Shown piece by piece: positions 22,930-58,516 of a stretch of 64,000 bases of DNA. How positions within the stretch are numbered: position 1 is the first letter of the stretch; each line of letters begins with the position of its first letter. The stretch is from contig NC_073391.1 of the NCBI RefSeq assembly GCF_028641065.1, positions 5,580,001-5,644,000 of the forward strand, written 5' to 3'. Under the pieces are notes generated by a model. That model was not told the origin of the DNA. It searched no databases and saw only the letters and a list, made by a program, of their open reading frames with translations. Made by a program: the position numbers and the translations under genes. The DNA comes from Leucoraja erinacea (lineage: Eukaryota).

Positions 22930-23177
22930 TTTATGTGTAGGAAGAAACTGCAGATGCTGGTTTAAACCAAAGATAGACACAAAATGCTGGAGTAACTCAG
23001 CGGGACAGGCAGCATCTCTGGAGAGAAGGAATGGGTTACATTTCAGGGCGAGACCCTTCTTCAGACTCATGTCAGGGGAGACCAGTTTGAAGAAGGGTCT
23101 TGAACCAAAATGTCACCCATTCCTTCTCTCCAGAGATGTTGCCAGTCCCGCTGAGTTGCTCCAGCATTTTGTGTCTA
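22930..23177. mobile_element. Palindromic Penelope-derived mini-element
   Basis: Two inverted pseudo-LTR arms; TSD ACCAAAGTGG at 22920-22929 and 23178-23187. Confidence 0.85.
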
Positions 23178-23669
23178 ACCAAAGTGGATGATATTTTTCG
23201 AACCCCTGCACAATGTCAATTTCAACTTGGTCATGAGAGAAGTTGTATGAAGAAAAATCAGGGACAGAATTAACAGCTTGGCTTAGACTGGAGTGAATGA
23301 TGAAAACCAACATGGATTTGTTAAAAGGCAATTCGTGTTGAGCTAACATGATAGAATTTTTGAAAATATTACAGAGAAAATCAATGGCGTAAATATTGTT
23401 GTTGTAGAGTACATGGACTGTCAAAAGGCATTTGATAAGTGGCCACATAATGGACCTGTCATTATCATTGTAGATTGTCGAATAAAAGGGGTTGCAGCAG
23501 CAGGGATAGAAAATGGGCTGATCGGAAATAGAACATAATAGCAACAAGGGGAAGAAAATGAGAAAGCAAGAATAAGCTTAAAGATAAGAAAGTCTACCCT
23601 TGTAGAACTGGTTTTGGGACTGCTCAGTGGATTGCAGAGCAAGGACAGTCAACTGTGGTGTCTCCCAGG

Positions 23670-24118
23670 TCATAGAGTGCAGCTTGCATAGATACAGCAG
23701 CAAACAGGCCCTTCGGCCCAACTTGCCCATACTGGCCAAAATGTCCCAGCTACACTAGTCCCACCTGCTCGCGTATGGTCCATATCCCTTCAAACCTGTC
23801 CTGTCCATGTACCTGTCTGACTGTTTCTTAAAGGGTGGGATAGTTACTGCCTCAACAAACTCCTTAGGCAGCTTGTTCCATGCACCCACCACACTTTGTG
23901 TGAAAAAGTTACCCCTCGGATTCCTATTAAATCGTTTCCACTTCACCTAAAACCTATGTCCTCTGGTCCTCGATTCACCTACACTGAGCAAGAGAGTCTG
24001 TGCATCTACCTGATCTATTCCTCTCATGATTTTACATACCCATATAAGATCACCCCTCATCCTCCTACGCTCCAAGGAGTAGAGTCCCAGCCTATTAAAC
24101 CTCTCCCTATAACTCAGG
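23670..24118 (-). mobile_element. CR1 3' fragment
   Basis: RFNRNPRGNFFTQSVVGAWNKLP. Confidence 0.85.
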
Positions 24119-24119
24119 T

Positions 24120-25550
24120 GTATAGTTTAGTGTAGTTTAGTTTAGTTTATTATCGTAATGTACAAAGATACAGTGAAAAGCTTTTGTTTGAGTGCTATTC
24201 AGTCAAAGAAAGGCTATACATGAATACAGTCAAGTCCTCCACACAGCAGATAAAGGATAAAGGCTGCAACATTTAGAACAAAGATATAACGTTGAAATCC
24301 GAGAAAGGTCTGATTAAAGAGAGTTCAAAGGTCTCCAATGAAATAGATGGGAGGTCAGGACCGCACTCTAGCTGATTAGAAAACCATTCAGTTCCCTGAT
24401 AACAACTGAGAAGAAACCGTCCCTGAATCTGGAGGTATGCCTTTTCAAACTTCTGTACCTATTCCCTGAGTAGATTTGCTGCTGATATTTATACCAAGAA
24501 ACTTGAAGTTTTCGACCATCTCTACTTCGGTGCCATCAACTTAGACTGGGCTGTGTGTACTGCTTCAGTTCCTGAACTCAATCACAATCTCCTTTGTCTT
24601 GCTGACATTGAGGAAGAGGACATTAATTTGTCACCCATCCTCACGGATTGTGGTCCGTGGGTCAGGAAGTCCAGGATCCAGTTGCAGTGGGGAATTCTGA
24701 CTCCGAGTTCCACAAGGTTAGAGAGATATAGAAACATAGAAATTAGGTGCAGGAGTAGGCCATTCGGCCCTTCGAGCCTGCACCGCCATTCAATATGATC
24801 ATGGCTGATCATCCAACTCAGTATCCCGTACCTGCCTTCTCTCCATACCCTCTGATCCCCTTGGCCACAAGGGCCACATCTAACTCCCTCTTAAATATAG
24901 CCAATGAACTGGCCTCGACTACCCTCTGTGGCAGAGAGTTCCAGAGATTCACCACTCTCTGTGTGGAAAAAAGTTCTCCTCATCTCGGTTTTAAAGGATT
25001 TGCCCCTTATCCTTAAGCTGTGACCCCTTGTCCTGGACTTCCCCAACATCGGGAACAATCTTCCTGCATCTAGCCTGTCCAACCCCTTAAGAATTTTATA
25101 AGTTTCTATAAGATCCCCTCTCAATCTCCTAAATTCTAGAGAGTATAAAGCAAGTCTATCCAGTCTTTCTTCATAAGGCAGTCCTGACATCCCAAGAATC
25201 AGTATGGTGAACCTTCTCTGCACTCCCTCTATGGCAATAATGTCCTTCCTCAGATTTGGAGACCAATTCAGATGAGCTTGGATGTGATAATGGTATTGAA
25301 TGCAGAGCTATAATCAATGACTAGGAGTCTGACCCAGGTGTCCTACTTATCCAGGTGTTCTAGAGATGAGTGTAGGGCCAGGGTGGTGGCATCAGCTGCG
25401 GACCTGTTGTGGCGGTAGGCAAACTACAGTGGATGAAGGCTGCTTGGTAGACTGGGGTTAATGAGTGCCCTTACCAACCTCTTGAATGACTCCATTATGG
25501 TGGAGGTAAATACTACTGGACTGTAGTCATTAAGGTGTGAGATTTTGGCT
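24120..25550 (-). mobile_element. Degenerate Rex1/Babar-like LINE interrupted by a CR1
   Basis: CNWILDFLTHGPQSVR; NDYSPV and DYSSAFNT-like segments at 25270-25540; (CTAAA)n tail. Confidence 0.7.
24727..25268 (-). mobile_element. CR1 3' fragment nested in Rex1
   Basis: QRRFT..LYSLEFRRLRGDLIETYKI; TTCTATGT tail; close to 10150-10512. Confidence 0.9.
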
Positions 25551-26029
25551 CAGTATTGGATCACTGTTTTTTTTTTAACATCTATCAATTATTTGGATTT
25601 GACTGTACAGGCACAATTAAAAAAGAATACAAAAAACAGAAAGATAAATGTAACAAATTATGTGGGAGAAAGATACATTTCAATTAAATATGGACAGGCT
25701 GGTGCAATATGAGGGTTGGTGGCAGTAAATTTTAGTGCTGAGAAATGTGAAGGATGTAAAGAGGAAATATAAGTTGGAGGGTCAAACAAAAAAAGGGGTA
25801 CAAGAACAGATACATTCGAGGAGGGGCTGGGGGAGGGGTGGTATACGTGCGCAAGGCATTGAAAATAGGCAGGCAGGTGAAGAAAGTGGTTAAAATGCAT
25901 TATTAAAGACATAAGGTAAAAGAACAAAAACAAATCGTTCTGAACCTTCATAAAAGAAAGTTGATTTGGCCAGAGGTAGAACATTGTAAAGGTCATTGTA
26001 AAGGTTACAATCGTAAAGGTTACCATCGT

Positions 26030-27915
26030 AAAGGTAATGCTACAGTTGTGTTTATTTTTTTTAATTTATTTATTTATTTATTTTTAAATATTTTATTTTA
26101 TTAGAAGTAAGCACAGTCATATGGCACCAAAGTGCCTAATATATATTTTCATAATACATTTTATGTACAACTTCTTTTTTTTTTGTTACATTGAAAAAAG
26201 ATGAAAATAAGAAAAAGAAGTTAGATAGTAAAGGATCGAAAGATGTGAAATATATAGTGTGTGAAGAAAGAAAACGAGTAAGTGAAGAAAGCTGAGAGAG
26301 AAAATAGTGAAAAGAAAAGGAGATCATTATTTATAGTCTTGACCAACCCTCGTCCAGTCCTGAAACAGTTATTTTTTACAATTGTGTTGCACCATATGAT
26401 TCCAAAAAAACGACGAATGGAGACCAACTCGTTATGAATTGGTCTGATTTATCCATTAGGAGGAATCGCATTTCCTCAAGATGAGCGGTGTCCAACATAC
26501 TTGCAATCCACTTGCAATGCTACAGTTGTTATGAGAGATTTCAACATGCAGGTAGACTGGGAAAATCAGGTTGGTACTGACCCCAAGAAAGGAAGTTTGT
26601 AGAGTGCCTCTGCGATGGATTCTTAGAGCAGCTTGTATTGGAGCCTACCAGGGAGAAGGCAATTCTGGATTTAGTGTTATGTAATGAACCGGATTTGATA
26701 AAGGGAACGAGGTTTAAGGAGCCATTAGGAGGTAGTGACCATATTATGGTAAGTTTTAATCTACAATTGGAGAGGGAGAAGGGTAAATCGGAGGTGTCCG
26801 TGTTACAGTTGAACAAAGGGGACTAGGGAGCCATGAGGGAGGAGCTGGCCAAAGTTGACTGGAAAGATACCCTAGCAGGGATGACAGTGGAACAACAATG
26901 GCAGGTATTTCTGAGAATAATACAGAAGTTGCAGGATCAGTTCATTCCAAAGAGGAAGAAAGATTCCAAGGGGAGTAAGGGGCGACCATGGCTGACAAGG
27001 GAAGTCAGCGACAGTATCAAATTAAAAGAGATGAAGTACATAGCAAACATGGCAAAAGTTGAAGAAGAACATAGCAAAGTTGAGTGGGAAGCAAGAATAC
27101 CGGGAGAAAAGATGAGGTACGAAGGTAAGCTAGCCAAGAATATAAAGCAGGATAGTAAAAAGCTTCTTTAGGTATGTGACGAGGAAAACATTTGTTACGA
27201 CCAAAGTTGGACCCTTGAAGACTGAGAAAGATTAGTTTATTATGGGGAACAAGGAAATGGCAGATGAGCTGAACAGGTACTTTGGATCTGTCTTCACTAA
27301 GGAGGACACAAATAATCTTTCTGATGTACGAGTGGCCAGAGGATCTGGGGTGACAGGAACTGAAGAAAATCCACATTAGGCAGGAAATGGTGTTAGATAG
27401 ACTGATGGGACTGAAGGCTGATAAATCCCCTGGGCCTGATGGTCTGCATCCCAGGGTACTTAAGGAAGGGCTCTAGAAATCGTGGATGCATTGGTGATAA
27501 TTTTCCAATGTTCTATAGATTCAGGATCAGTTCCTGTGGATTAGAGGGTAGCTAATGTTATCCCACTTTTTAAGAAAGGCGGGAGAGAGAAAACAGGGAA
27601 TTATAGACCAGTTAGCCTGACATCGGTGCTGGGGAAGATGCTGAAGTCAATTATAATGGATGAAATAGCCACACATGTGGATAGCAGTAACAGGATCGGT
27701 TCAAATCAGCATGGATTTACGAAGGGGGGGGGGGGGGGGGGGGCTTGACTAATCTTCTGGAGGGGGGGAGAGAGAAAACAGGGGAATTATAGACCAGTTA
27801 GCCTGACATCGATGGTGGGGAAGATGCCGGAGTCAATTATAATGGATGAAATAGCCACACATTTGGATAGCAGTAACAGGATCGGTTCAAATCAGCATGG
27901 ATTTACGAAGGGGGT

Positions 27916-27955
<40 letters not shown>

Positions 27956-27961
27956 ATGCCA

Positions 27962-27997
<36 letters not shown>

Positions 27998-29330
27998 TGG
28001 GGGGAGGGGGATCATGCTTGACTAATCTTCTGGAATTTTTTGAGGATGTAACTAGGAAAATGGACAAGGGAGAACCAGTGAATGTAATGAATCTGGACTT
28101 TCAGAAAGCATTTGATAAGGTCCCACATAGGAGGTTAGTGGGCAAAATTAGGGCACATGGTATTGGGGCTGGAGTGCTGAGATGGGTAGAAAATTGGTTG
28201 GCAGACAGGAAACAAAGAGTAAGGATTAACGGGTCCCTTTCAGAATGGCAGGCAGTGACTAGTGAGGTACCGCAAGGCTTGGTGCTGGGACCGCTGCTAT
28301 TTACAATATACATCAATGATTTAGAAGAAGGGATTCAAAGTAACATTAGCAAATTTGCAGATGACACAAAGCTGGGTGACAGTGTGAACTGTGAGGAGGA
28401 TGCTATGAGAATGCAGGGTGACTTGGACAGGTGGGTGAGTGGGCAGATGCATGGCAGATGCAATTTAATGTGGATAAATGTGAGGTTATCCACTTTGGTA
28501 GGAAAAACAGGAAGGCAGATTTTTATCTAAATGGTGTCAAGTTAGGAAAAGGGGAAGTACAACGGGATCTGGTGGTCCTTGTTCATCAGTCAATGAAAGT
28601 AAGCATGCAGATGCAGCAGACAGTGAAGAAAGCGAATGGCATGTTGGCGGCCTTCGTAACAAGAGGGGTTGAGTATAGGAGCAAAGAGGTCCTTCTGCAG
28701 TTGTACAGGACCATAGTGAGACCAAACCTGGAGTATTGTGTGCATTTTTACACCCCTAATTTAAGGAAGGACATTCTTGCTATTGAGGGAGTGCAGCGTA
28801 GGTTCACAAGATTAATTCCCGGGATGGCGGGACTGTCATATGCTGAGAGAATGGAGCGGCTGGACTTGTATACTCTGGAATTTAGGATAAGAGCGGATGT
28901 TATTGAAACATATAAGATTATTAAGGGTTTGGACACGCTAGAGGCAGGAAACATGTTCCCGATGTTGGGGGAGTCCAGTACCAGGGGGTAACTGGATGTA
29001 GGCTGATATGCACCATCGACATCCAGGGGGCCACCGTTTAAGAATAAGGAGTAAGCCATTTAGAATGGAGATGAGGAAACACTTTTTCTCACAGAGAGTT
29101 GTGAGTCTGTGGAATTCTCTGCCTCAGAGGGTGGTGCAGGCCGGTTCTCTGTATACTTTCAAGAGAGAGCTCTCAAAGACAGCGGAGTCAGGAGATATGG
29201 GAAGAAGGCAGGAACGGGGTACTGATTATGGATGATCAACCATGATCACATTGAATGGCGGTGCTGGCTCGAACGGCCGAATGGCCTACTCCTGCACCTT
29301 TTGTCTGTTGTCCATTATGTCCTATTGTGA
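26030..29330 (+). mobile_element. CR1 LINE (APE C-terminal half and RT) with nested L1 and an internal duplication
   Basis: EPTREKAILDLVL..SDH, DFQKAFDKVPH, VPQG, FADD, LEYC; (TATTGTC)-like tail. Confidence 0.9.
26050..26515 (-). mobile_element. L1-like LINE 3' end with A-rich tail
   Basis: 14-bp TSD AATGCTACAGTTGT (26036-26049 and 26516-26529). Minus strand encodes KWIASMLDTAHLEEMRF..FITSWSPF, resembling fish-type L1 ORF2 C-termini. Confidence 0.8.
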
Positions 29331-29406
29331 GCATCATACTTGCTCAACAGTGTGAAGGCATGTGTGATCTTGTTAGCTCTCCACTCAGCTCAAGAGTAGA
29401 AGCAAA

Positions 29407-29610
29407 GTATTGCAGATGCTGGTTAATACATAAAAGGTCACACAGTGCTGGTGCAGCTCAGCAGGTCAGGTCAGGCATGCATTGGTCATGTATCGGGTTG
29501 AGACCCTTCTTCAGGCCAATGACGGGCTTTGACCCGATACATCACATCCATATTCTCCAGAGATGCTGCCTGACCTGTTGAGTTGCTGCAGCACTTTGTG
29601 TGGCCTTTTA
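29407..29610. mobile_element. Older palindromic Penelope-derived mini-element
   Basis: tgcagatgctgg..gagacccttcttcag arm, then inverted gacccga..gatgctgcctgacc..cagcactttgtgt arm. Confidence 0.7.
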
Positions 29611-29649
29611 CGTAGTAATCAGATAAGGTGGTCAAAAATACCGATTAGT

Positions 29650-35075: not shown

Positions 35076-35426
35076 ATAAAAACCACACAAAACACAGTTC
35101 AGTAGGCATTCAGTGTGTTCAGTTGATTCACAGCTCAGACAGAGTTGTGATCTCTCCCTCCCCCATCATGCAGATACTTAGCCACACCCACTTCTGGGTT
35201 TTATAATCCCTCCCCCTTCCACCGGAAAAGGTGTGGCCTTCATGGCGTGATTGACAGGAAAGAGATTCTCAACATTATTTAAACACTAATAACACTTTTA
35301 TTTTTTAATTGATGGGAAGAATGCTCTGCACCTGATCAGCGGAGGGGGACTGAGTAAGATGGTAGCGTTTTACATAAAATCAATATAGTGCAAACAGGAA
35401 GTTGTCAAATTTAGACAATCAACCCT

Positions 35427-37610
35427 TTGCAGTGCCTTTTCACTTCAACCCAAACAACCATTAGCAGTGCATTTTTACTTCAACCCAAACAACCATTTGC
35501 AGTGCATTTTTACTTCAACCCAAACAACCATTTGCAGTGCATTATTACTTCAACCCAAACAACCATTTGCAGTGCATTTTACTTCAACCCAAACAACCAT
35601 TTGCAGTGCATTTTTACTTCAACCCAAACAACCATTTGCAGTGCATTTTTACTTCAACCCAAACAACCATTTGCAGTGCATTTTTACTTCAACCCAAACA
35701 ACCATTTGCAGTGCATTTTTACTTCAACCCAAACAACCATTTGCAGTGCATTTTTACTTCAACCCAAACAACCATTTTCAGTGCATTTTTACTTCAACCC
35801 AAACAACCATTTGCAGTGCATTTTTACTTCAACCCAAACAACCATTTGCTGTGCATTTTTACTTCAACCCAAACAACATTTGCCCATTTTACTTCAACCC
35901 AAACCACCCCCCAAACATTTGCAGTGCATTTTTACTTCAACCCAAACAACCATTTGCAGTGCATTTTCACTTCAAACCCCCCCCCCCCAAACAACCATTT
36001 ACAGTGCATTTTTACTTCACCCAAACAACCATTTGCAGTGCAACTTCAACCCAAACAACCATTTGCAGTGCATTTTTACTTCAACCCCCCCCCAAACAAC
36101 CATTTGCAGTGCATTTTTACTTCAACCCAAACAACCATTTGCAGTGCATTTTTACTTCAACCCAAACAACCATTTGCAGTGCATTTTTACTTCAACCCAA
36201 ACAACCATTTGCTGTGCATTTTTACTTCAACCCAAACAACCATTTGCAGTGCATTTTTACTTCAACCCAAACAACCATTTGCAGTGCATTTTTACTTCAA
36301 CCCAAACAACCATTTGCAGTGCATTTTACTTCAACCCAAACAACCATTTGCAGTGCATTTTTACTTCAACCCAAACAACCATTTGCAGTGCATTTTTACT
36401 TCAACCCAAACAGCCATTTGCAGTGCATTTTTACTTCAAACCAAACAACCATTTGCAGTGCATTTTTACTTCAACCCAATCAACCATTTGCAGTGCATTT
36501 TTACTTCAACCCAAACAACCATTTGCAGTGCATTTTTACTTCAACCCAAACAACCATTTACAGTGCATTTTTACTTTAACCCAAACAACCATTTGCAGTG
36601 CATTTTGCTTCAACCACAAACAACCATTTGCAGTGCATTTTTACTTCAACTCAAACAACCATTTGCAGAGCATTTTACTGCAACCCAAACAACCATTTGC
36701 AGTGCATTTTTACTTCAACCCAAACAACCATTTGCAGTGCATTTTTACTTCAACCCAAACAAACAACCATTTGCAGTGCATTTTTACTTCAACCCAAACA
36801 ACCATTTGCAGTGCATTTTTACTTCAACCCACCATTTGCAGTGCATTGTTACTTCACCCCAAAACCCATTTGCAGTGCATTTTTACTTCAACCCAAACAA
36901 CCATTTGCAGTGCATTTTTACTTCAACCCAAACAACCATTTGCAGTGCATTTTACTTCAACCCAAACAACCATTTGCAGTGCATTTTTACTTCAACCCAA
37001 ACAACAACCATTTGCAGTGCATTTTTACTTCAACCCAACCCCCCCCCCCCCAACAACCCTTTGCAGTGCATTTTACTTCAACCCAAACAACCATTTGCAT
37101 TTGCATTTTTACTTCAACCCAAACAACCATTTGCAGTGCATTTTTACTTCAACCCAAACAACCATTTACAGTGCATTTTTACTTCAACCCAAAACCCCCC
37201 AAACAACCATTTGCAGTGCATTTTTACTTCAACCCAAACAACCATTTGCAGTGCATTTTAACTTCAACCCAAACAACCATTTGCAATGCATTTTTACTTC
37301 AACCCAAGTGCATTTTTACCCCCCCAAACAACCATTTGCAGTGCATTTACTTCAACCCAAACAACCATTTGCAGTGCATTTTACTTCAACCCAAACAACC
37401 ATTTGCAGTGCATTTTTACTTCAAACCAAACAACCATTTGCAGTGCATTTTTACTTCAACCCAAACAACCATTTGCAGTGCATTTTACTTCAACCCAAAC
37501 AACCATTTGCAGTGCATTTTTACTTCATCCCAAACAACCATTTGCAGTGCATTTTTACTTCAACCCAAACAACCATTTGCAGTGCATTTTTACTTCAAAC
37601 CAACCATATT
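35427..37610. repeat. 35-bp minisatellite, about 60 copies
   Basis: Unit TTCAACCCAAACAACCATTTGCAGTGCATTTTTAC; gives a 35-aa periodic translation in all three + frames. Confidence 0.97.
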
Positions 37611-40600
37611 TTCATTTTCAAACCACATTAAGGGCACTCACAGTTGAGTAGACATGTGTTCATTGTTATTCAGAGATCAGAGAGACGTGACCCTCTGGCT
37701 TCCTCCATCTTGCAGAGACTGAGTGCGGCACATCACTTCCTGGTTTTATAGTCCCTCCCCCGCCCTCCAGCAGGGGCAGCAGAGAGAATGGCTAATTTTT
37801 TTAAAACATTAATATGTCTCTGATTTTTCATCCATGGGAAAAATCCTCTGATCCCGGAAGGCGGACGGGGGCTCTGAGCGAGGTGGCCAAAAATGACGGC
37901 CGTAGGTGACGGCGTTCTCTCGGAAATCGCAGCACAGTGAGTCAAAAGCGGTCAAGATCAGATTTTGAGTAATATAGATTTGGCCAGATGCATGGAAAGG
38001 TTTAGAGGAATATGGGCCAAATGGGGCAAGCTTGGATGGGAATCTTAGTCAGCATGGACATTGGAATCGAAGGGCCTTTTTGCATGAATCTGATCTTTTT
38101 CTTCACTCTGAGGATAACAATGCCACTTACAATGCCCACATTGAATGTCCATTCTTAATTGTCCTCTAGAACTGATGTTAAGCCAGCTTTTTGAACCTGT
38201 GAGGTGATGATACTCTCATGGTAGGAAGTTCCAACAGTTTGATTATAGAGAGTTGGGTGACTGCTGTCGCCCTAAGATAATGCATTACTTGGAGGGTAAA
38301 TTACAGTCAGTGGAGTTCCAATATATCTGTTGCCTTCCATGTGGCACCTAAACTGCTGCATATCCACAAAACACTTTGTAATTCTCTCTTTCGATTTCCA
38401 GGCCCACCTCTATTTCTTTTTGAAATGCCTGGCTTCATTCCATTTTATAGATTTGTGTATTTTTCCCAAACTATTTAGTTCCTTTTCTCTATGCCTCCAT
38501 TAGTTTGGCATTGATTCCATTGTTGTTTCCTTTTTCCATGTTGTATTAGCCTTTGTGACTATTTCTTTCTTGTCTCTTCACATTTCTGCTTTTCCTCTTG
38601 TTTCACTCTCAGTCAGTTAGCCAAAGCACAGAGGATTGCTTGTAAGTGCATAACGAACATCGCAAATTAAATATAGTGTCGTGCAGTGAATTGAAAATCT
38701 CTGAGGCACTTGGAAAATTTTGCAGTGGTCATTTAGGTTGAGTTCCTGCCAACAGTTATGCTCCACTGAGCAGATACTCCAGAATGTTTCTACTTGTGCC
38801 CTTTTGTTTAAGGCACAAAATGGCTTCAAAAAGTAGAAGATTGCTACAAAAACTGGGACATTTGCCAGGTATAATGATTGTCCAGTCAGTTCACCTTGAC
38901 ACTATTTTTGACTCACTTTTATTTTACAAAGGCAACAAAGGAGAAGGTATATATTGTGCAGCATAACAGATGGTCAAGGGATGAAGTACAGACATGTTCA
39001 AGTCCTTGATTGCTTTGGGACTTGTAGTCCTTGAGTGATGACATGGTCTGTACTTGTTTGATCCATTTTTCAGCCGATTCTAGCCATAACCCATAAAAGG
39101 TGACATTGTTGTTTACTGAAGCAGTTTGTTACTTGTTAGTGGCAAGGATATTGGCAAGCAAAATAAGAACAAAAATAACCAAGGAAATATAAAATGTCAT
39201 TTTCTTCACAAATTATTCATTAAGTGATCAGTAATGGCCTATATTTGTGAACAATAGAAATAGAAGACACATTCTGGTTTCTCTTCTGCTGGTAACTTCT
39301 ACATTAACAGTAGGACCAATGCTCAGCACGAAAAGGCAACATTTATCACTTACTTAATAAAACTATAATTTATTTAAAAGTCAATCTAACTCTTTGCTGC
39401 CACTTGGAATGAACCATTGCAGTCTGTATATTTTAAGCTTATATTTTAACCATCTCCTTAGCTCTCATGTTTGCTTAGAATACATGAAAAAGCTCATCAT
39501 ACCAAATTGAAGTGCCTCAGATTACATAATGCTGTTGCAGGGTAGATTCAATTTCGTAATTGCTTCAACATCTTGCATTCTGCTACCTGGTTATCAGCTT
39601 CCAAATTTGCACTTATCACACAGAAGGACAAATGTGATTCATTTTAATTAAAAATAAAACTGATGCCAGGAGCATTCTTCAGAACGTCGAAGAGAAAGTA
39701 AAGATCTTTGATGACCTCAGCCACTGAGGATCAATTAAAATCATAGAAATCAAACAAGCAGTAACTAGTCTGCAAAGTACCTACTGTCGCAATAACAATG
39801 TCATGGTACAGTTTGGAAACTGTTCTTTTAATGCACATTCTCATTAAATGCCAGCAAAGATACTTATAACTTAACCAACTAAGTTTAATGAATTGTTATT
39901 AACGGTACACTGCACATTGTTATTGAACTTTAGCTGTCCAATTTCAAATTAGTTCAAATTGCAGGTTGCAGAATTTTGATCAAATATGTGAGCCACATCT
40001 AACCATAACTGTAATTTTAGACTAATATTTTACTCTAATGTTATTGCATTTTGACACAATGTTTGTAGGTCTTGATTTTTATTTTGATCAAAAGCTGCCT
40101 TGATCATGAAGGCTGGTTTCCACTAGTGGGAAAGTCTAGGACTAGGGGTCATAGCCTCAGAATTAAAGGACGTTCCTTCAGGAAGGTGATGAGGAGGAAT
40201 TTATTTTGCCTGAGGGTGGTGAATCAGTAGAATTCTTTGACACAGGAGTTTGTGGAGGCCAAGTCAATGGATATTTTTAAGGCAGAGATAGATTCTTGAT
40301 TAGTATGGGAGTCAGGGGTAATGGGGAGAAGGCAGGAGAATGGGAGGGAGAGATAGATAGATCAACCAAGATTGAATGGTGGAGGAGATGTGATGGGCCG
40401 AATGGCTTAATTCTGCTCCTATCATCAGCCTTGTCTCGCCTCAGCTCCCGTTTGGAATTTTGCTCTGTTGTCCAAGACTACAATGATGTTTGGACCCATG
40501 TGATCGTAGTGGAATCCAAACTGAAATAATTGATAAGGATATTGATGAGCATCTGCTTCTTGCTAGCAGCATCAACAATCCCTGCCACCAATTTGATGGT

Positions 40601-41030: not shown

Positions 41031-41505
41031 TAACATTACATTTTGGTGCACTATAAGCCAGCAAAATCAAACTGAGGAGTAATTGGGGACTGATCATGGA
41101 CTCAATGCTCTTCTCAATGGATCCTTTGTGTGTTTGGCACAATAAAGCACAGATGACTTCAGAAATGGAGCATTCATGTTATTCAATGAACCACTTCCTA
41201 GATTTTAATTTGCTTGTGTGTGGCTGTGGATGTCCATATTTGGGAACCCACCAATAAATATTTATTTACCTGGCCTTCTCTTTCCTTCCTTCCACTCTCC
41301 CTCCCTCCCTCCCTCCCCCCCTCCCTCCCTCCCTCCCATCTCAACCCTTTGGCTCAAGCCTTCCCCACAGATCTGTCAACTGGCCTTCAACACCAACAGT
41401 TATCCAGCAGCCCCCACACTACATTAAACGCCAGCCTCTCTGATTGGCGACATCTCCCTTACTGCTCTCTCCTTCCCCAACCACAACCAGCAACCATCTG
41501 CATGA

Positions 41506-41626
41506 GTATGCTGGTTTAAATCGAAAATAGACACAAAAGACTGAAGAAGGGTTTCGACCTGAAACGTGCTTCTCTCCGGAGATGCTGCCTGTCCCGTTGA
41601 GTAACTCCAGCATTTTGTGTCAATCT
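41506..41626. mobile_element. Penelope-derived mini-element
   Basis: 13-bp TSD ACCATCTGCATGA (41493-41505 and 41627-41639); short inverted arm plus CTGAAGA..GAAAC motif. Confidence 0.85.
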
Positions 41627-41820
41627 ACCATCTGCATGATACCCCTCGACATACCAGCCAGGTTCCAACCTACCACTGCCTGGCCTGGCTGATGCCATCC
41701 AGTCCTGATGACTACACTTTCCAATAGCAGTCCAAGACCTCCCCAGCCCATCCTCATCTTCATCCTCATCCTCATCTGATTGCAACCCAATAATTCCCTG
41801 TGTACGTTCCATTGGACATT

Positions 41821-42126: not shown

Positions 42127-42400
42127 TAATTGGTGTTTTGTAGCAGAGGCCCATGATGAAAATGATAATTGATCCACCTGCGCTGATCGTGTAACTGGGC
42201 GACTTAATGCACCTAAATATTCGACATTCAATATCTCAGATAAATCTTGCGTGCATATTTTTTTTTCTAGACATTATATAAACTAGATCAAATTTGCTGT
42301 AGACTAGCATCTCTGATGTGGAACAGGGAGACTGGCCGTTTCAAGCTGATGATGGTAACATATGTACCATCATAACCCTGTCACTGGGGACACAGAGTTA

Positions 42401-42728
42401 AGGGGCTGTCCCACTGTACGAAATAATTCAAGAGCTCTCCCGCGTTTAAAAAAAAAAAAAACTTGTGGTAAGCATGTAGAATGTACGTAGCAGGTACGTC
42501 GGAGTTCAGGACGTCTCTTAGCGGCTCGTAACGCTAACGGCAGGTACTCGGGAAATGCGGTGAAGACTCGTGAAATGCGTGAAGATTCGTGAAGATTTTT
42601 CAACATGTTTGAAAACATCCATGAGAGCCCCGAGTACCTACGAGCGGCTATTACCATAATTCTCTGAGTTCGAATCAGGGGAAATTCGGGAGATCTCTTG
42701 AATTAGCTCGTACAGAGGGACAGCCCCT
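42401..42728. mobile_element. PIF/Harbinger-type MITE, family D copy 1
   Basis: TIRs aggggctgtcccactgtacga / tcgtacagagggacagcccct; TTA TSD. Confidence 0.88.
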
Positions 42729-42919
42729 TTACAGTTTTGGGCCAAGATGCTGGAGAAAACACATGTTTATTCAGAGAGTAGTTATGATCCATAACTCACA
42801 GCATGTAAAGGATGGAAACTGAATCAATCTTAAAGGAGTATTGAAAAACCATTTGAATGATAATTTGCAGGGCTGTGAGAAAGGAGTGAGGGCGTGGGGC
42901 TGATAGGAATGTTCTATTG

Positions 42920-45435: not shown

Positions 45436-45699
45436 TCTCTTATGTAGAATTTTTTTTAGTGATTTTGAATATAAATCTGAAATACATAATAAGATATGTT
45501 AGTCTATAGTACTGTCAGAATGACAAACAAATGTGAAGAGCAAACGCACTTTTGTGTGCATGTTGATGGATCCAGCCCCACCTCAACATCACTCCTGGTG
45601 GAGGCAGATACGACATTGGCATTTTAGAGGCTTTAGATAGGCATGTGGAAGTGCAGGGAATAGAGGGATATGGATCATGTACAGGCAGATGAGATCAGT

Positions 45700-45861
45700 G
45701 TAAGGAATGGGTGATGTTTCAGGTCGTGACCCTTCTTCAGATTAATAGACCTGAAATATCACCCATTCCTTCTCTCCAGAGATGCTGACTGTCCCCCCAC
45801 TGAGTTACTCCAGCTTTTTGTGTCTATCTTAGATTTTAAAGAGCATCTGCAGTTCCTACAC
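45700..45861. mobile_element. Palindromic Penelope-derived mini-element inside a CR1 tail
   Basis: 11-bp TSD ATGAGATCAGT (45689-45699 and 45862-45872). Confidence 0.85.
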
Positions 45862-45942
45862 ATGAGATCAGTTTAACTTGGCATCATGTTCGGCACAAAC
45901 TTTGTGATCAGAAGGGCCTGTTCCTGCACTGTCCTGTCCTCT

Positions 45943-46150
45943 GTAGGAAGGAACTGCAGATGCTGGTTTAAACCGAAGATAGACACAAAAACCTGGAGTA
46001 ACTCAGCAGGACAGGCAGCATCTCTGGAGAGAAGGAATGGGTGACGTTTCGGTTCTGAAGTAGGGTCTTGATCCGAAACATCACCCATTCCTTTGCTCCA
46101 GAGATGCTGCCTGTCCCGCTATGATACTCCAGCTTTTTGTGTCTATCTTC
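45943..46150. mobile_element. Palindromic Penelope-derived mini-element
   Basis: Two inverted arms meeting at gtgacgtttcgg|ttctgaagtagggtc. Confidence 0.85.
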
Positions 46151-46569
46151 TGTACTGTTCTATGTTCTGTCCCGTTCCAAGTGGCCGCTAATATAGAGAC
46201 TGCAAAACAATCTCTTGTTTTCTTGAATGAGAATGTATTCAACTATGACTCAATAAAGAGTAGGTTCAAATATTAAATATCAATAGTATACTTCCCTGCA
46301 AGAAAAATGACAATGAGTCTTCAATGTAACTAAATAATCCGCAGGTGAACAGTCAAATAAGACCACCATGGCGAATGATTGAGGGAAGTGATGCAGAGGT
46401 GGAGCTGTATCATCACTTGGGTTAGGGTTCCGTCATTGTATACGTGGAAGTGCATCCGTTATTTACACCTAGGATGTAAGTTGCTTGGTTCCATTTTAAT
46501 GATGTACTTTCGCTTTAATCTACATGGTCCTGGTTTCCCAGGAAATCCAACAAAAAAAGGTTGAAGGAA

Positions 46570-46702
46570 CAGTCTGAAGAAGGGTCTCGACCTGAAACAT
46601 CGCCTATTCCCTCTCTCCATAGATGCTGCCTCACCCGCTGAGTTTCTCCAGCATTTTCTGTCTACTTTCGATTTTTCCAGCAACTGCAGCTCCTTCTCAA
46701 AC
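46570..46702 (+). mobile_element. Penelope pseudo-LTR fragment beginning at the hammerhead motif
   Basis: gtCTGAAGAagggtctcgacctGAAAcATC followed by the pseudo-LTR body. Confidence 0.82.
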
Positions 46703-47729
46703 AATAAAAGGTTGTATCTTTCCATAAATGAAGCTCTACTTGTGGGTCAGATGGAGCGGCATAATCTTATCAGACACATTCCAATGAACACTGAGCAATT
46801 TTTTCCTCCCCTCAATACCAATCGACAATCAAGAAACCCTGCATCACTGAAGGCTGATTTCTCTGTCAATCGCTGAATTTAGGCAAAATCCTATCTTTGA
46901 TACCACTCCCTGCCCCCAAATCTGCTGACCACTTGTAATTAGCAAGTATCTGTGGTCACAGGCAGTGCCTCATCCATGCTTTTGTCAGCTCTTCACATTA
47001 AACCTCAGACTATTTCTTGCAATCCTGTTGCACCATTAAGTTTAATCAGTAGGTTTCTAGATTGACTTTAAAAAATCAACAGACAGAAATAATAGATTCA
47101 TCAGGGTGTTAAGGAGACGGTTCTGCTGGTCATACAGCTGTTTGAAGAAATATTTGAATTTTCAAGAAATTGTATTAGCGTTATAAAATCTTCACAAGTG
47201 CTTTACAGAATTGTTATCAATCAGAATTAGCCGCATGAGGCGAATATGAAGTGTGTGACAGAGCATGATCAAAGATAGATTTTAATAACTACATTGAAGG
47301 ACAAGAGAAGTGAATGGGCTTCACAGAGGGAATGCCAGAGATTCAGACTTGACAACTAAAGACATGGCCACCAATTGTTAACAAATATGTTTTTGGCTAG
47401 ATCTGAAGGGGCACATATATCTTGATGTAAATCTATAGGTGATTACAGAGATTGGGAGATGCGAGTCTCTAATGGGATACAAATAAGGTTGGCAAGGATA
47501 GAAGTGTCTGGAAAGGAAGCTTGGTGCAAGAGACAACACAGGCAGCAGAGCATTGGAAGGTTTCACATATGTGGACAACTGAATGAGGTCGTGGAAATGT
47601 GTTGGAGCAGTAAGGATTAGAGGATTGGTAAGGACAATTCTCCCAGCATCAGAAGATGTGAAGCAGGGTGGAGCAGGTCAATAAGAACACCTCTCACGGC
47701 AACTGAAGATGAACAAAAAAATAAATAAA

Positions 47730-50725: not shown

Positions 50726-51240
50726 GCCTCCAGGATGGATAGATTATCTTTACTGCAAATAACATAGGAAGTTATTTGTGGTTATTCTAAGAGCTGTGGT
50801 GGGGATAGGGATTTGATAGGATACATTCAATTAAATAATCCAAGGTTTGAATGGCTGACCAGGAAGGAAAGAGATGTTGAAAATTAGTCTAAATTTGCAA
50901 ATGCTGAGATATCATGTAAAATAGTGCTGGCGTCAAATTTAACACGCCTCACCAGATGCTTTAGCAAAGAAGTAACATAATAACCTTGAAGAGCCAAAAG
51001 GGGAATGAAGAATTTGTGCAACATCTTTGTTTATAACAGTCCCTCACCACTTGTGCTGACTCTGTCGTTGCACAAGATCAGAAGGCTACAGAAGATGGTC
51101 TTTTTCCACATTCCACCTCAAAGTTTATGGAAACTACTGGCTCCCATCAATGGGATCGGAACGTAAATCACTATCCACCTTTACTGAATAGTTAATTCCA
51201 TCAAATGAAAGGGAAGATAAACCAAGGAGAATTAAACAAA

Positions 51241-51474
51241 AATGTGCAGGAGGGAACTGCAGATGCTGGTTTACACCGAAGATAGACACAAAATGCTGGA
51301 GTAACTCAGCGGGACAGAGAGCATCTCTGGAGAGAAGGAATGGGTGACGTTACAGGTCAAGACCCTTCTTCAGACTGTCTGAAGTAGGGTCTCGATCCGA
51401 AACATCACCCATTCCTTCTATCCAGAGATGCTGCCTGTCCCGCTGAGTTACTCCAGCATTTTGTGTCCATCTTA
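51241..51474. mobile_element. Palindromic Penelope-derived mini-element with two abutting hammerhead-like motifs
   Basis: Centre cccttcttcagac-t-gtctgaagtaggg; 13-bp TSD AGAATTAAACAAA (51228-51240 and 51475-51487). Confidence 0.9.
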
Positions 51475-52606
51475 AGAATTAAACAAATTTATTTTCTGCA
51501 TTGTGGGAAGTATATTAGTAATAAAAGGCAACTGTGCTATTGTCCATTCAATTGCACCTTCTCAACTACATTGATTACCTTTGACAGCTACACACATCTA
51601 CACAGAGGAAAATTAAATAATGTGCAAGAGCTAGTATAATTAAGGAGATTAAAGTCTTCCCATGCGTAGGTGACTACTCCTCAAAATGGAGCCATGTGTC
51701 AAAAGTCACAATGATTTACTGAAGATAAATTTCCATGTAACATCTACTGAAATAAGTAGTTCAGGTCAAATCACTTTTCCTTAATTTGTAACTATAGTAA
51801 TACCACAAGAACTTGCCAGCACTTAAGCGACATCTTCAGACTAATGGGAGGCACAAAGTAATTTCAGTTGACACTTGGCAACAGTAATAACTGCAACAAA
51901 GCTTCATACACTGTATCCCGTACCGGTGAACTCTAATTCATTCAAGACTGTTGTTATTAACCAAAGTTAAAATGCAGAGTTATTACTATTTTTTGAAGTC
52001 GGGTTATTGGAGCATTTCTTTGCAAGTGTGAAATCTGTCACTTGTCGTCTGGCAGATGAACCTAAATTTCCCAAGACTTCGGTTTTTTTTCCAGTAAGCA
52101 CCAGCATTGATTTAATGAGCATCTGTTCTTGTTGCAGTTGTGTTTTTGTTTGTGGACTGCTGTTATGCTGCCTTATCCATAGCATCTGCTGCAGTTTGAA
52201 GTTATAATTGCTGCAGAGCTTTTGAAACATACACTTTCTATTCGATCCAAGAATTTCATCCAACAATTCATCAATACATTAACAGTGTTTTTAGGATTCG
52301 TAACTGGTTTCAGCTGAGTTCAGAATAAGTGCATTGCAACAATCAATTTAAAAAAAAATGTGTTACTTATATATCTCAAGGAATCAACGGAAATCACAGC
52401 AGCTACAAATGCCTGACTACTACTCAGAGTCCAGTTATTTTAATTATGTTTTCAAGTATAGCAGCCCTCAATATGGGAGATTAGCAGTGAAAATATAATT
52501 AAGTATCTCAAATTTTGTTGAGAGCTACAGGTATAGATTCTGTTCCAAAATGGTGCCCACTTTGTGGCAAGAATGGCAGCTTGCATCAATGCTCAAGCAG
52601 TTAACA

Positions 52607-53616: not shown

Positions 53617-53637
53617 TTCTAGATATATGCAGATATC

Positions 53638-55270
53638 TGTCTCAGAGTGTGGTGGCGGCCAGTTGTCTGGATACTTTCAAGAGAGATCTAGATAGGGCTC
53701 TTAAAGATAGCAGAGTCAGGGTATATGGGGAGAAGGCAGGAACGCGATACTTTTTGGGGATGATCAGCCATTGAATGGCGGTGCTGGCTCGAAGGGTCGA
53801 ATGGCATACTCCTGCACCTATTGTCTATTGTCTATTGTCAAGGTAAGTATAAAATGGGTATAGACATTGTCAAGCTGGAAAGGTTCCAGAGAAGATTTAC
53901 AAAGATGATGCCAGGACTCAAGGGCTTGAATTAAAGGGAGCAGTTGAGCAAGCTTGGATTCTGTTCTTTGGAGCGCAGGAATATGAGGGGGTGATCTTAT
54001 TGAGGCATACAAATTATGAGAGGAATAGATCGGGTAAACACACAGAGTCTCCTGCCCAGAGTAGGGGAATCGAGGAACAGAGGACATAGATTGATGGTGA
54101 GGGAGGATAGTTTTAATAGGAACCTGAGGGTAACCTTTTCACACAAAGAGTGGTGGGTAGATGGGATGAACAGCCAGAGGAGGTAGTTGAGGTAGGTACT
54201 ATTGCAAAGTTTAAGAAACATTTCGACAGGTACATCAAAATAATAGGTTTAGAGGGAAATGGGCCAAATGCAGCCTGGTTGTACTAGTACTAGGACATAT
54301 TGGTTGGTGTGGGCAAGTTGGACTGATGGGCCTGTTTCCACGCTGTATTAATCTATGACTCTGGAAGGACACCATAAGATCAATTACTGTAGACCACTGT
54401 TAATGTAAATGAAGCCATAGAGTCACAGATTCATACAGTGTGGAAACAGGCCCTTCGCCCAACTTGGCCACACCGGCCAACATGTCCCAGCTACACTAGT
54501 TCCACCTGCCATGCGTTTAACTCATATCTCTCTATACTTATATTTTTGATGTGCCTGTGTAAATGTTTCTTAAACATTACAATTGTACCTCCTTCAACTA
54601 CCTCCTCAGGCAGTTTGTTCCATATATCTATCACACTCTGTGTGAAAAGGCTACACCTCAGATTCCTATTAAATCTTTTCGCCTTCACCTTATATTCTCT
54701 GGTTTTCGATACCCCTTCTCTGGGCAAGAGACTCTGTGCATCTATTCTTCTCATGATTTGATATACTTCGATAAGATCACCCCTCATCCTCCTGTGTTCC
54801 AAGGAATAAAGTCCCAGCCTGCTCGTCCTCTCCCTATAGCTCAGACCCTCTAGCCCAGGCAACATCCTCATCCTCGTAAATCTTCTCTGTATCTTTCCAA
54901 TTTGACAAACTCTTTCCTATAACATGGCGCCCAGCACTGGACGTAATATTCTAAACATGGCCTCTTATACAACTACAACATGACCTCCTATCTTCTATAT
55001 TCGATACTTTGACTGTTAAAGGCCAATGAGCCAAAAAGCCTTTTTGACCACCATATCTGTCTGTGATGCCATCTTCAAGGAGGCATGTACCTGCCCTCCA
55101 AGACCCTTCTGCTCTACATCACTCCCCAGAGCCCTACCATTCATTTTTGTACGCCTGCCAATGTTAGACTTTCCAATATGCATGACCTTGCATTTCTCTG
55201 TATTAAATTCGATCAACCATTCTTCAGCCCACCTGGCCAACCGTTCAAGAACCTGCTGCAATTTTTGACA
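53638..55270. mobile_element. Cluster of CR1 3' fragments (+ 53638-53840; + 53845-54362; - 54415-55270)
   Basis: LGLYSLEHRRMRGDLIEVY, WAEEWLIEFNTEKC; CR1 3' hairpins and microsatellite tails. Confidence 0.85.
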
Positions 55271-55648
55271 TCTATCGTCACTGTTTTACAATCCTCCACC
55301 TGATGTCATCTATTAACGTTGCACTGCGGAATGCCTGGGCACTTCAACAATGCCTGTTGAAGATTCAATTCTTGCAAATAATAGTTAACTGTTTTCTACT
55401 AGAGGTAACTACAATGCTGCGAGTGTTTCAATTATTCTTTAAATTTATGAAATCTTGCAGAAAGTGGCAGGGCTAGTACTGAAGGGCTTTGTTCTGACTT
55501 CAAGGCTTGTGTATAAATCGATTGACTCCAGACGTAGGTTTGCTTTCCTTGCTTAACAGCATTACTACAAGATTAAATAAAGGGCACATAGACCAGCGCA
55601 AGCTGCTAAAGACAGTGGATGAGGAGAAGAGATTTTTCAGCAGCCTAA

Positions 55649-55969
55649 AAGCCCTGTCCCACGGTACAAGTTTATTCCAAGAGCTCTCACGAGTTTAAAA
55701 AAAAATCAAACTCATGGTAAGCACGGAGAATGAACATAGCAGGTATGTAGGAGCTTGGGGACGTCTCTTAGCGCTAACGGCAGGTACTCGGGAAGACTCG
55801 CTAACGGCAGGTGAGCACAGGTAGACTCGTGAAGATTTTTCAACATGATGAAAAATGTCCACGAGAGCCCCGAGTACAGACGAGTGGCCATTCCCGTAAA
55901 TCTCCGAGTTCGAACCAGGGCAAACTCAGGAGAACTCTTGGAATGAACCTGTACCATGGGACAGAGCTT
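55649..55969. mobile_element. PIF/Harbinger-type MITE, family D variant
   Basis: TIRs aagccctgtcccacggtac / gtaccatgggacagagctt; body similar to 42401-42728; flanks TAA/TAT. Confidence 0.82.
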
Positions 55970-56149
55970 TATATCTGTCTAAAGTGTTAAGAGATCAAAT
56001 CTCCTGCTTGAACCAACAAGGAACATTAAATGAGACATCTACACTAAATAAAAAAAAACATCCTCACAATAATCTCCCCAACTGCTGCAAACATGATTGC
56101 GACTTCAGAATTGGACAAGGATTTCGGTGATTGGGAACACAAGCAAAAA

Positions 56150-56530
56150 TGAATGAATGAAATGAAAGACAAGTCACAGTGAAATTCTTTGCTTGCACAC
56201 CCAAGGTATGCAAATAGTTGCCACATAAAGGGCACCACCAAAGTTATAAAGTATCCTGCACCAGGTCCATCTCTCCAGGTCTCCCCCTCCCCCTCCCTCA
56301 TGGTGGTTGCCCCACACCAGGTCCTTCGCTGATCCTCCCCTCGGCAGCAGCATCCTCACTCCCACATGGTCCATCCTCGTCCGTTGACCGGCGCCTTCAT
56401 CGGCCGCTGCACCGACCTCTCCAGTAACGCTGCCGGGTCCTCTCCGGGCGCCTCCATGGCGCCGACGCAGGCTCCAGCCGTGGGCTCTGCAGACCCGCGC
56501 TCCGGGCTCTGGCTTCTCTGTGGCCTTCAG
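56150..56530 (-). mobile_element. GC-rich non-coding retroposon fragment with (TTCA)n tail
   Basis: Shares the ccttgggtgtgcaagcaaagaatttcactgtg tail with 320-556. Confidence 0.6.
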
Positions 56531-57199
56531 GGAGGTGTCTCCTTTGCATTAGAAGTTGTAGGTATGTCCAACGATTTGCATGTTTTCTTACATTATTGCA
56601 TTGAGAGGTTGGGGAGAGAGCGTAATTGAAGTTGTATATTTAAGGAGAGCAGTCCACATTTCACAGCAAGTGCAATGTATTCGTGGCTTTGCAGCTTCCT
56701 TCTCCTCTGTGCAGATCTAATTGATAGTTCTTCTGCTCTTTGCGGATGCCCATAAATTCTGACAAGTTCCATCGGCAACAAGAACTCTGTTGTTTCCCTG
56801 TCTGGCAACAGACCACAGGCAGCAGATCATCCAGGAATTCACCCAATACCCAGGAAGCAGCACAATGATTTCATTCTGCAGCATCCTGTTGTGCCAATGG
56901 ACTGGAGCTGCTGCAACAAAATTAGGCCTGGGAACTGGGTGAAATAGTCTATCCGCTGACCACACGGCTGAAGTACAGCAAAGCGCATGCAGAGGATTGG
57001 GCATTGTACAGCACGCCAGCACATTATCCATGTTCAATTGCCTTGAAAGGTATTGTGTTGCCTTCTGGAAGTGCTTCACTCTGCTTGAACTCATCTGCTG
57101 CTAATTCTGACCTGCACCGTCCCGTTTATTAGTCACGTTTGTCCTTGATTATCTCTGTTGGGAGTTGAGCGATTGTTGGACTGTGAACAGTCAGAGGTC

Positions 57200-57552
57200 A
57201 GAAGGAAACTGCAGATGCTGGTTTACACTGAAGAAAGACACAAAGAGTTGGAGTAACTCAATAGGGCAGGCAGCATCTCTGGAGAAAAGGAATGGGTGAC
57301 GTTATAGGTCGAGACCCTTCTCCAGATTGAGTCCGGGGGTGGAAACGGGAGTTATACAGTAGATGGTGATGTCAGAAATGTTTTTGCATATCTTTCATTC
57401 ATTTGTTCTCCCTACATCACCGTCTATATCTCTCGTTTCTCTTTCCCCCGACTCTAAGTCTGAAGAAGGGTCTTGACCGGAAATGTCACCCATTCCTTCT
57501 CTCCATAGATGCTGCCTGTCCAGTACTCCAGTACTCCAGCACTTTGTGTCTA
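57200..57552. mobile_element. Palindromic Penelope-derived mini-element with longer arms
   Basis: Inverted arms around 57375-57395; + strand CTGAAGA..GAAATGTC at 57460-57487. Confidence 0.82.
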
Positions 57553-57824
57553 TATTCACTGCTGCGGCTGTCCTCATGTGGCATCTGAATCTCCCATCAC
57601 TGAACTAGGCAAGTCATGCAAAATCATTGAACGTCCTGCCGTGTTCCATCTAGGTCCTCAGGACTTGGCTATTGACAATGGCACTCACATCTACATGTCT
57701 TCATTATCTTTGTTGGGTTTATCGGGAGGACCGCTTCCTATTCCACAAAGGCTCCACTGCAGCATCTGAAAAGATCACCCTGTTTGCCAGTATATTCAGA
57801 TCAGAATGAACATTGACTTCTCTG

Positions 57825-58516
57825 TAGGTACACAAAAATGCTGGAGAAACACAGCGGGTGCAGCAGCATCTATGGAGCGAAGGAAATAGGTGACGTTTTG
57901 GGCCAAAACCCTTCTTCAGACTGATGAGGGGGTGGGGGGGGCGAAGGAAGGAAAAAGGGAGGAGGAGGAGCCCGAGGGCGGGGGGATGGGAGGAGACAGC
58001 TCGAGGGTTAAGGAAGGGGAGGAGACAGCAAGGGCTAGCAAAATTCATCACTTCTCTGTTCCAGGTGTCAACCGCTCTACATCGCTGAGACCAAGCGCAG
58101 GCTTGGCAATCGCTTCGCCCAACACCTCCACTCAGTTCGCAATAACCAACCTGATCTCCCGGTGGCTCAACACCTCAACTCCCCCTCCCATTCTGAATCT
58201 GACCTTTCTGACCTGGGCCTCCTTCATGGCCAGAGTGAGTCCCACTGCAAATTGGAGGGGCAGTACCTCATATTTTGCTTGGGTAGTTTACGCCCCAGCG
58301 GTATGAACATTGACCTCCAAATTCAGGTAGTCCTTGCTGTCTGTCTCCCTCCTTCCCTTCCCCTTCCCAATACTCATACAGCCTACTGTCTCCGCCTCTT
58401 CCTTTCTTTTTCCCGCCCCTCCCCACATCAGTCTGAAGAAGGGTCTCGATCCGAAACGTCACCTATTCCTTCGCTCCATAGATGATGCCTCACCTGCTGA
58501 GTTTCTCCAGCAATTT
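57825..58516. mobile_element. Penelope-like element: inverted pseudo-LTR plus + strand GIY-YIG remnant and pseudo-LTR
   Basis: 58050-58516 is the reverse complement of the family at 14340-14810 (LYIAETKRRLGNRF, VAQHLNSPSH). Confidence 0.88.
58431..58462 (+). ncRNA. Minimal type I hammerhead ribozyme motif (best-preserved copy)
   Basis: gt-CTGAAGA-a-GGGTCTCGATCC-GAAA-C-GTC-ac: CUGANGA core, helix II hairpin, GAAA, GUC cleavage triplet. Helix III is reduced to palindromic ACGT. Activity not demonstrated. Confidence 0.7.

Follow-up and report, generated by a model that had tools for sequence, protein, structure and literature searches.

Palindromic pseudo-LTR repeats of Leucoraja erinacea: truncated Penelope-like element insertions probably primed on both cut target strands

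Examination of a 64,000-nucleotide stretch of the Leucoraja erinacea genome (contig NC_073391.1, positions 5,580,001 to 5,644,000, hereafter the window) revealed many short and often palindromic copies of a repeat that carries a putative hammerhead ribozyme motif. In sampled long copies this repeat, of about 135 nt, is the pseudo-long terminal repeat (pLTR) of Penelope-like elements (PLEs) with a reverse transcriptase (RT) and a GIY-YIG endonuclease. The short repeats are truncated insertions (stubs) of these abundant endonuclease-bearing elements and not a separate family of ribozyme-cut RNAs. Our main reading, to which we assign a probability of about 0.65, is that the palindromic units are such truncated insertions, made at each insertion event by an RT priming on both cut strands of the target. 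A more specific version is to our minds evenly balanced: endonuclease-bearing PLEs would integrate routinely by dual target-primed reverse transcription, a dimer priming both nicked strands from start sites 37 nt apart, with one start site per strand and the same uncut RNA, mostly its 5' pLTR, as template.

Arms of the repeat were called by alignment to consensuses built in this analysis, both in the window and in a sample of 100 preset 10-kb stretches of the 2.19-Gb genome, which together amount to 1.064 Mb (numbers such as L128 designate sampled loci). Positions in the repeat are counted from C3 of the hammerhead core (the C of CUGAAGA, position 0), the putative scissile bond being +27/+28. 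A total of 561 arms was found, which extrapolates to roughly 0.9-1.2 million in the genome. They fall into two subfamilies, a and b, with 19 diagnostic differences between their pLTR consensuses, and they are old, with a mean identity to consensus of 86.6% across the sample. The window contains 26 arms, of which 20 span the hammerhead core; the earlier note on this DNA had reported more than 15 copies, many of them inverted, throughout the locus of terminal deoxynucleotidyltransferase (TdT). A TdT exon is indeed present, but the arm density of the window (26 in 64 kb, ~406 per Mb) is the genome average, close to that of chromosome interiors (245 in 600 kb, 408 per Mb), and TdT introns are no special target. 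Small chromosomes (139 arms in 200 kb) and regions near chromosome starts (151 in 200 kb) reach ~700-750 arms per Mb, about 1.8 times the ~410 per Mb of large-chromosome interiors.

Six pairs of head-to-head arms no more than 60 nt apart start in the window at 22934, 29411, 41508, 45702, 45942 and 51243. The target-site duplications (TSDs) of 10, 13, 11 and 13 bp that the earlier note had seen around four whole units were all exact. The inverted units of the window are as follows:

22930..23177, inverted unit, subfamily b: minus arm with tail, -18..+130; plus arm ending short, -4..+90; exact 10-bp TSD at 22920-22929 / 23178-23187; about 195 nt downstream of the TdT exon
29411..29601, decayed old inverted unit, 70-81% identical to consensus; TSD not found
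41506..41626, inverted unit, subfamily b: short minus arm, +72..+110, including part of the tail; plus arm -3..+93; each arm has sequence absent from the other; exact 13-bp TSD at 41493-41505 / 41627-41639
45700..45861, inverted unit, subfamily b: minus arm covering -1..+38; plus arm from +15 to the end of the tail; exact 11-bp TSD at 45689-45699 / 45862-45872
45942..46153, inverted unit: minus arm with tail, +15..+128; plus arm covering -1..+98; TSD not found
51241..51474, inverted unit, subfamily b: minus arm with tail, -4..+130, and plus arm, -2..+94, meeting at the hammerhead core's front edge; exact 13-bp TSD at 51228-51240 / 51475-51487
57201..57557, wider head-to-head pair of subfamily b arms with remnants of a 3' untranslated region (UTR): tailed minus arm, short-end plus arm; TSD not found

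The 3' ends of the arms are bimodal, with a short class at about +85..+98 (around +93) and a tailed class at +121..+131 (around +130). Short ends number 251, 89 in inverted units and 162 in non-inverted arms. The 37-nt spacing of the two classes matches the published PLE tail. Such a one-sided tail, 30-40 bp long, has been described (PMC3846280; PMC8557442), and its length equals the distance between two RT start sites (PMC11167929). Adjacent arms of the sample comprise 104 head-to-head, 12 tail-to-tail and 51 same-strand pairs. Thirty-seven of the 104 inverted units have at least one end beyond both classes and fall outside the end-class test; the other 67 divide into 56 with one tailed and one short end, 8 short/short and 3 tailed/tailed. 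Against an expectation of 33 mixed units, 56 were found (p 8e-9); of the 31 units bounded by a TSD, 28 are mixed.

The 5' extents of the two arms bear on how the inversion is made. Among the 56 mixed units, it is the short arm that extends beyond the other by more than 10 nt on the 5' side in 26 and the tailed arm in 17, and the two agree within 10 nt in 13. In those 26 the arms are non-nested, each holding sequence that the other lacks, and therefore neither can be a copy of the other there, which weighs against simple fold-back. According to that alternative, a single primed cDNA would loop at the palindrome of the hammerhead region and copy itself, and later central deletions would leave the arms asymmetric. 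Self-priming has been proposed for rotifer PLEs (PMC3846280), the arms have common variants, some junctions overlap perfect palindromes of 9 and 15/16 nt, and multi-switch hairpins occur in subfamily a; fold-back predicts nesting, however, whereas the untailed arm extends further 5' in 26 units and the tailed arm in 17, and a copy-back stop at +93, where 162 non-inverted arms likewise have their 3' end, is left unexplained. We regard fold-back as unlikely. The palindromic overlaps suggest joining via self-complementary stretches of the hammerhead region. The hairpins, which have three or more arms (L120, L138, L140 and L141), turn at +5..+10 and +36..+40, positions that flank a perfect 7-bp inverted repeat across helix II.

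A TSD surrounds 32 of the 104 inverted units, compared with 1-4 in ten shuffled pairings. After removal of one self-match (L128:737), the 31 remaining TSDs are 8-18 bp long (median 13, 34% GC) and the units that they bound span 101-263 nt. The combination of arm starts is almost always private, 55 being distinct among 56 units; junctions are not common to copies, and the units were therefore built at insertion. The suggestions of the earlier note that the inversion point varies from copy to copy and that the fold-back is made afresh each time are borne out in this respect. A pre-formed palindrome amplifying as such, in the manner of a miniature inverted-repeat transposable element (MITE), would also place TSDs around the whole unit; it is contradicted by the 55 of 56 distinct junctions, by the 8-18 bp range of the TSDs and by the unequal ends, and is hardly credible. 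Both arms belong to the same subfamily in 92 of 94 classifiable pairs. Arm identity in subfamily b is 84.2% within units versus 80.5% between units, a value not reached in any of 1000 permutations, and sharing is also detected in subfamily a (p 0.02, 8 units). Judged from these variants, both arms of a unit appear to derive from one source.

The 5' ends of the arms cluster in -9..+5, where the hammerhead core has its front edge, about 30 nt upstream of the scissile bond. Non-inverted arms stop at a rate of 0.2-1.4% per nt between +79 and +12, with 0.11% at +27..+30 (1 of 223 arms at risk); the rate rises to 3.7% at 0..+4 and 12% at -5..-1, where the -5 bin absorbs stops as far as -8, and is about 1% upstream. 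An artefact of seed edges was rejected as the source of this hotspot by a retest in which long natural sequences served as references and arms had to be 90% or more identical to consensus. Of the arms reaching +5, 31 of the 62 that were non-inverted and 24 of the 26 that were inverted stopped in -9..+5; in -24..-10 the figure was 2 of 31, and in +21..+35 it was 6 of 76. Simple copies bounded by a TSD start at -10..+5 in 16 of 45 cases and in none of two shuffled controls (13 matches in all). The expectation that breakpoints would be non-random relative to the motif, with arms ending near it, is therefore supported. "Ribozyme-delimited", as the earlier note called the repeats, they are not: among the sampled arms no pile-up of 5' ends was found at +27/+28, where stops are at or below background. 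Since 5' ends do not accumulate at the cleavage bond, the templates were mostly uncut, as for the Poseidon element of Anolis (PAc).

Transcription start sites within the pLTR have been reported for Penelope (PMC2377424) and Chlamys-3 (PMC8557442), and TCAGT near -5 is an initiator-like sequence. Dual priming could also be right with the hotspot being a road-block to the RT, either a hammerhead fold or a bound protein, or a product of trimming to a protected edge. In keeping with this, stops smear from -9 to about +20 and increase through the motif, the subfamilies all converge at TCAG and are unalignable upstream, and about half of the non-inverted arms pass the hotspot. An RT would nevertheless meet the 3' side of such a structure first, yet stops are rarest at +21..+35 and most frequent at the 5' edge; just 2 of 26 inverted arms extend past -10, and the published pLTR start sites offer another origin (PMC8557442; PMC2377424). 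A road-block is in our opinion improbable, somewhat more so than fold-back.

The motif itself fits a minimal type I hammerhead of the PLE kind, a putative assignment made from the consensus sequences. These have the core, helix II and a helix III that is absent or palindromic, but helix I, formed by the nucleotides that precede CUGA and those that follow the cleavage triplet, is limited to 2 contiguous pairs and falls short of 4-5 bp. Helix II differs between subfamilies by a one-sided U-A/U-G change. An intact core with a 4-bp stem II was recovered by pattern in 3 of 20 core-covering arms in the window and 66 of 231 in the sample. The full 28-nt motif as the earlier note wrote it had no exact match among those listed for the window, the best (58433-58460) having 1 mismatch. 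The hammerhead fold was not among the four energy-minimisation folds tried per subfamily consensus. A scan against Rfam, suggested by the earlier note, gave no hammerhead match at E<=1 and just sub-threshold microRNA, U6 and S15 matches; those of the hairpins to microRNA families call for caution in annotation.

Long copies have the order RT, CNRRKCYTC linker, GIY-YIG, pyrimidine-rich 3' UTR and repeat, with the RT motifs and the C-terminal GIY-YIG in a single, frame-broken open reading frame (ORF); no intact element copy was identified among them, and the GIY-YIG of the window copy has a Pfam E of 0.036, under the cut-off. Of 30 loci fetched for the 5' part of the ORF, 23 have by our count a direct, same-orientation pLTR just upstream. 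In full-length copies this upstream pLTR, tail included, leads into an ATG at about +163, and the repeat serves there as both pLTR and 5' UTR. Endonuclease sequence lies further upstream of the 5' pLTR in 9 loci, which are partial tandems. The hallmarks of endonuclease-bearing PLEs are all present, namely the same repeat before and after the ORF, RT and C-terminal GIY-YIG in one ORF, and inverted, 5'-truncated copies with a one-sided tail of 30-40 bp and a TSD. A CX2-5CxxC linker between RT and endonuclease marks Neptune and is shared with Nematis (PMC8557442). The CX4CX2C form of this linker before the GIY-YIG indicates that the element is probably of Neptune type, as the earlier note had proposed, although it is also a Nematis mark. 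Genome-wide, first-look searches gave 84,612 candidate matches (not copy numbers) for an endonuclease query, 3,413 for an RT-upstream query and 564 for an ORF 5' query, a steep gradient of 5' truncation.

Other copies of the window, with the host exon, are:

2213..2303, minus strand, single pLTR arm, -3..+88, short end
3778..3909, minus strand, single pLTR arm, -2..+129, tailed
14065..14139, minus strand, single pLTR arm, +15..+89; TSD of 14 bp with 1 mismatch
14300..15185, minus strand, subfamily a PLE copy truncated at its 5' end, with a fragment of the RT end, CX4CX2C linker, a GIY-YIG in decay, pyrimidine-rich 3' UTR and pLTR with tail; hammerhead C3 at 14428
22445..22735, plus strand, TdT host exon, E 6.6e-23 to PDB 1kdh
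46570..46703, plus strand, single pLTR, -4..+129; TSD of ~14 bp with 1 mismatch; run-off-type stub
57826..58050, minus strand, probably separate pLTR insertion with a different 3' UTR; own 10-bp TSD
~58057..58521, plus strand, 5'-truncated PLE copy, subfamily a: 3' part of GIY-YIG, 3' UTR and short-end pLTR; hammerhead core 58433-58460
61200..62614, cluster of four older arms, of which 61313-61444 is linked to a decayed GIY-YIG at ~61734-61905

The two loci at which the earlier note joined the repeat to a GIY-YIG frame do have this arrangement, with the sister subfamily a, whereas the TSD-bounded units are of subfamily b. The second, given as 58050-58516, corresponds to the copy at ~58057-58521, and the adjoining 57826..58050 looks like an independent insertion. 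Endonuclease-linked copies exist in both subfamilies (for b, L030, L103, L129, L019 and L123 are examples), and the short b units therefore need no separate master.

These observations bear on the proposal of the earlier note, a separate non-coding, hammerhead-cut RNA of the short interspersed element (SINE) or retrozyme type, moved in trans by a Neptune element. In its favour, the motif is compatible with a minimal type I hammerhead (PMC4209133), arms far outnumber endonuclease loci (561 to 35 in 1.06 Mb), one TSD-bounded simple copy begins at +27/+28, and non-autonomous pLTR derivatives are in print (10.64898/2026.07.22.740005; MRC1, PMC8557442). The breakpoint map, without a pile-up of ends at the scissile bond, largely refutes it; coding copies occur in both subfamilies, the stubs represent the 5' end of full-length elements, junctions are unshared, no family-specific internal sequence is present, and both the 2-bp helix I and the lack of the hammerhead fold in the folds tried tell against the proposal. 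A SINE-like family would have its own master without coding counterpart; here the common 5' edge is that of the element's own 5' pLTR. This origin is accordingly very doubtful, more so than a road-block.

Dual priming would proceed as follows. The GIY-YIG domain would make a staggered cut in the target, and each target 3'-OH would prime at one of two internal RT start sites. An ordinary element transcript, left uncut and beginning near -5, would serve as template, mostly through its 5' pLTR, and the cDNAs would run off the 5' end of this RNA after 90-135 nt, in cis; if transcripts do start near -5 in the upstream pLTR, internal priming would yield such short products. Two antisense cDNAs coming from opposite sides would then meet head to head and be joined, in many cases where the hammerhead region is self-complementary, and where the second cDNA is tiny or absent a plain stub of ~130 nt would result. 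The anole Poseidon protein, a predicted dimer, makes cuts in both strands and extends them, has two internal start sites that bracket the tail, and uses uncut RNA (PMC11167929). Also consistent with dual priming, RNA reads of a related organism, from one poly(A) run, have loose ends of diverse kinds at -2/-3 and where the tail ends; they lie on both strands, with no position at which many molecules start or stop, the library being fragmented and dominated by host read-through. If the reading is true, routine dual priming explains why the tail is one-sided, why the arms are inverted head to head and why there are a million tiny stubs, and the hammerhead region is a 5' boundary and joining surface rather than a cutter.

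Several points weigh against dual priming. In vitro, the PAc start sites are described without a strand difference (PMC11167929). The one-tail, one-short rule is broken by 11 of the 67 units tested, with 37 of 104 unclassed. Asymmetric central deletions in unstable long palindromes could mimic non-nesting, gene conversion between arms could partly account for their shared variants, and the age of the copies blurs their ends. The 5' stops are smeared over ~15 nt and not at one base, and the start near -5 is a putative one; a cap-derived G was not seen at a single start base, the nucleotide after AG being A in 16, T in 9 and G in 7 cases. Finally, 9 near-full-length copies run past the hotspot into upstream endonuclease sequence, and longer templates therefore exist. 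Splicing from a donor at ~+162 to an acceptor formed by the pyrimidine tract and CAG was considered and rejected, with 0 exact junctions genome-wide and one unconvincing 2-mismatch match in the fetched DNA; the "donor" is better read as the context of the ORF's ATG.

The inverted pLTR, the tail, the TSD, the minimal hammerhead and non-autonomous pLTR derivatives are already published features of PLEs, and the repeat family is ordinary in kind. In titles and abstracts, with supplements and subscription papers outside the scope, we found neither the one-tail, one-short rule nor dual priming as the cause of PLE inversion; nor was the family found described in cartilaginous fish, although Repbase and Dfam, also outside the scope, may hold it. 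On the origin of inverted pLTRs and one-sided tails, the only in vitro study leaves second-strand steps unvalidated (PMC11167929). About a million natural copies provide a quantitative footprint, with one tail and one short end, non-nested arms, a 5' edge at the hammerhead front and no accumulation of ends at the cleavage bond, which makes dual priming directly testable in the existing PAc assay.

The window also contains other repeats. Decayed frames at 19347-20796 with tyrosine recombinase domains of the phage-integrase type, preceded by an RNase H/RT-like frame recognised by eye, are likely a remnant of a DIRS-type retrotransposon. A long tandem repeat of a short unit at 35389-37650 has open frames in all three phases. 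Fragments of ORF2 of long interspersed elements lie at 4353-5261, 5714-8489 (endonuclease and RT domain matches) and 27877-28991, and a MITE-like family of ~320 bp with terminal inverted repeats of ~30-50 bp, unrelated to the pLTR, is found at 2693-3008, 42397-42732, 55648-55970 and 60445-60767.

Among known systems, twin priming of L1 also involves both target strands priming on the RNA and leaves an inversion inside one TSD. The second primer of L1 anneals upstream and the two parts do not overlap, whereas both arms of the present units copy one segment from two fixed start sites. Non-LTR retrozymes are likewise short, non-coding, hammerhead-bearing repeats derived from pLTRs; they are described as head-to-tail tandems with a complete hammerhead per unit (PMC7229834; 10.64898/2026.07.22.740005), while our copies are solo or head to head, none of the window units has that layout, and genomic ends are not set by cleavage at +27/+28. 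Head-to-tail arrays of a 66-bp unit (pLTR +20..+85, without the CUGA core) occur at L138:7043-7445, with periodic matches at L076:2168-2506, L100:740-920, L139 and L140; they constitute a pLTR-derived minisatellite of retrozyme-like layout and incomplete hammerhead.

The hammerheads of metazoan PLEs share with ours CUGANGA, an extra nucleotide, a helix II closed by G-C, GAAA and a palindromic ACGU replacing helix III, as well as mostly solo copies, some close together on opposite strands; helix I is typically 4-5 bp, with 2 bp in D. virilis (PMC4209133). Here it has 2 bp, and most of the copies are decayed. Published insertions of endonuclease-bearing PLEs likewise have a pLTR inverted head to head, a tail confined to one arm, a TSD that encloses the unit, partial tandems and heavy 5' truncation (PMC3846280; PMC8557442). 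Those of Leucoraja differ in being mostly pLTR-only and in offering enough copies to quantify the one-tail, one-short rule and the non-nested arms. A further parallel is PAc, which resembles our element in its two RT starts bracketing the tail, in the cutting and extension of both strands, in its uncut template and in a hammerhead site without ends, and differs from it in belonging to the Poseidon clade, with an ORF that starts at stem II instead of a Neptune-type linker and an ATG at ~+163 (PMC11167929).

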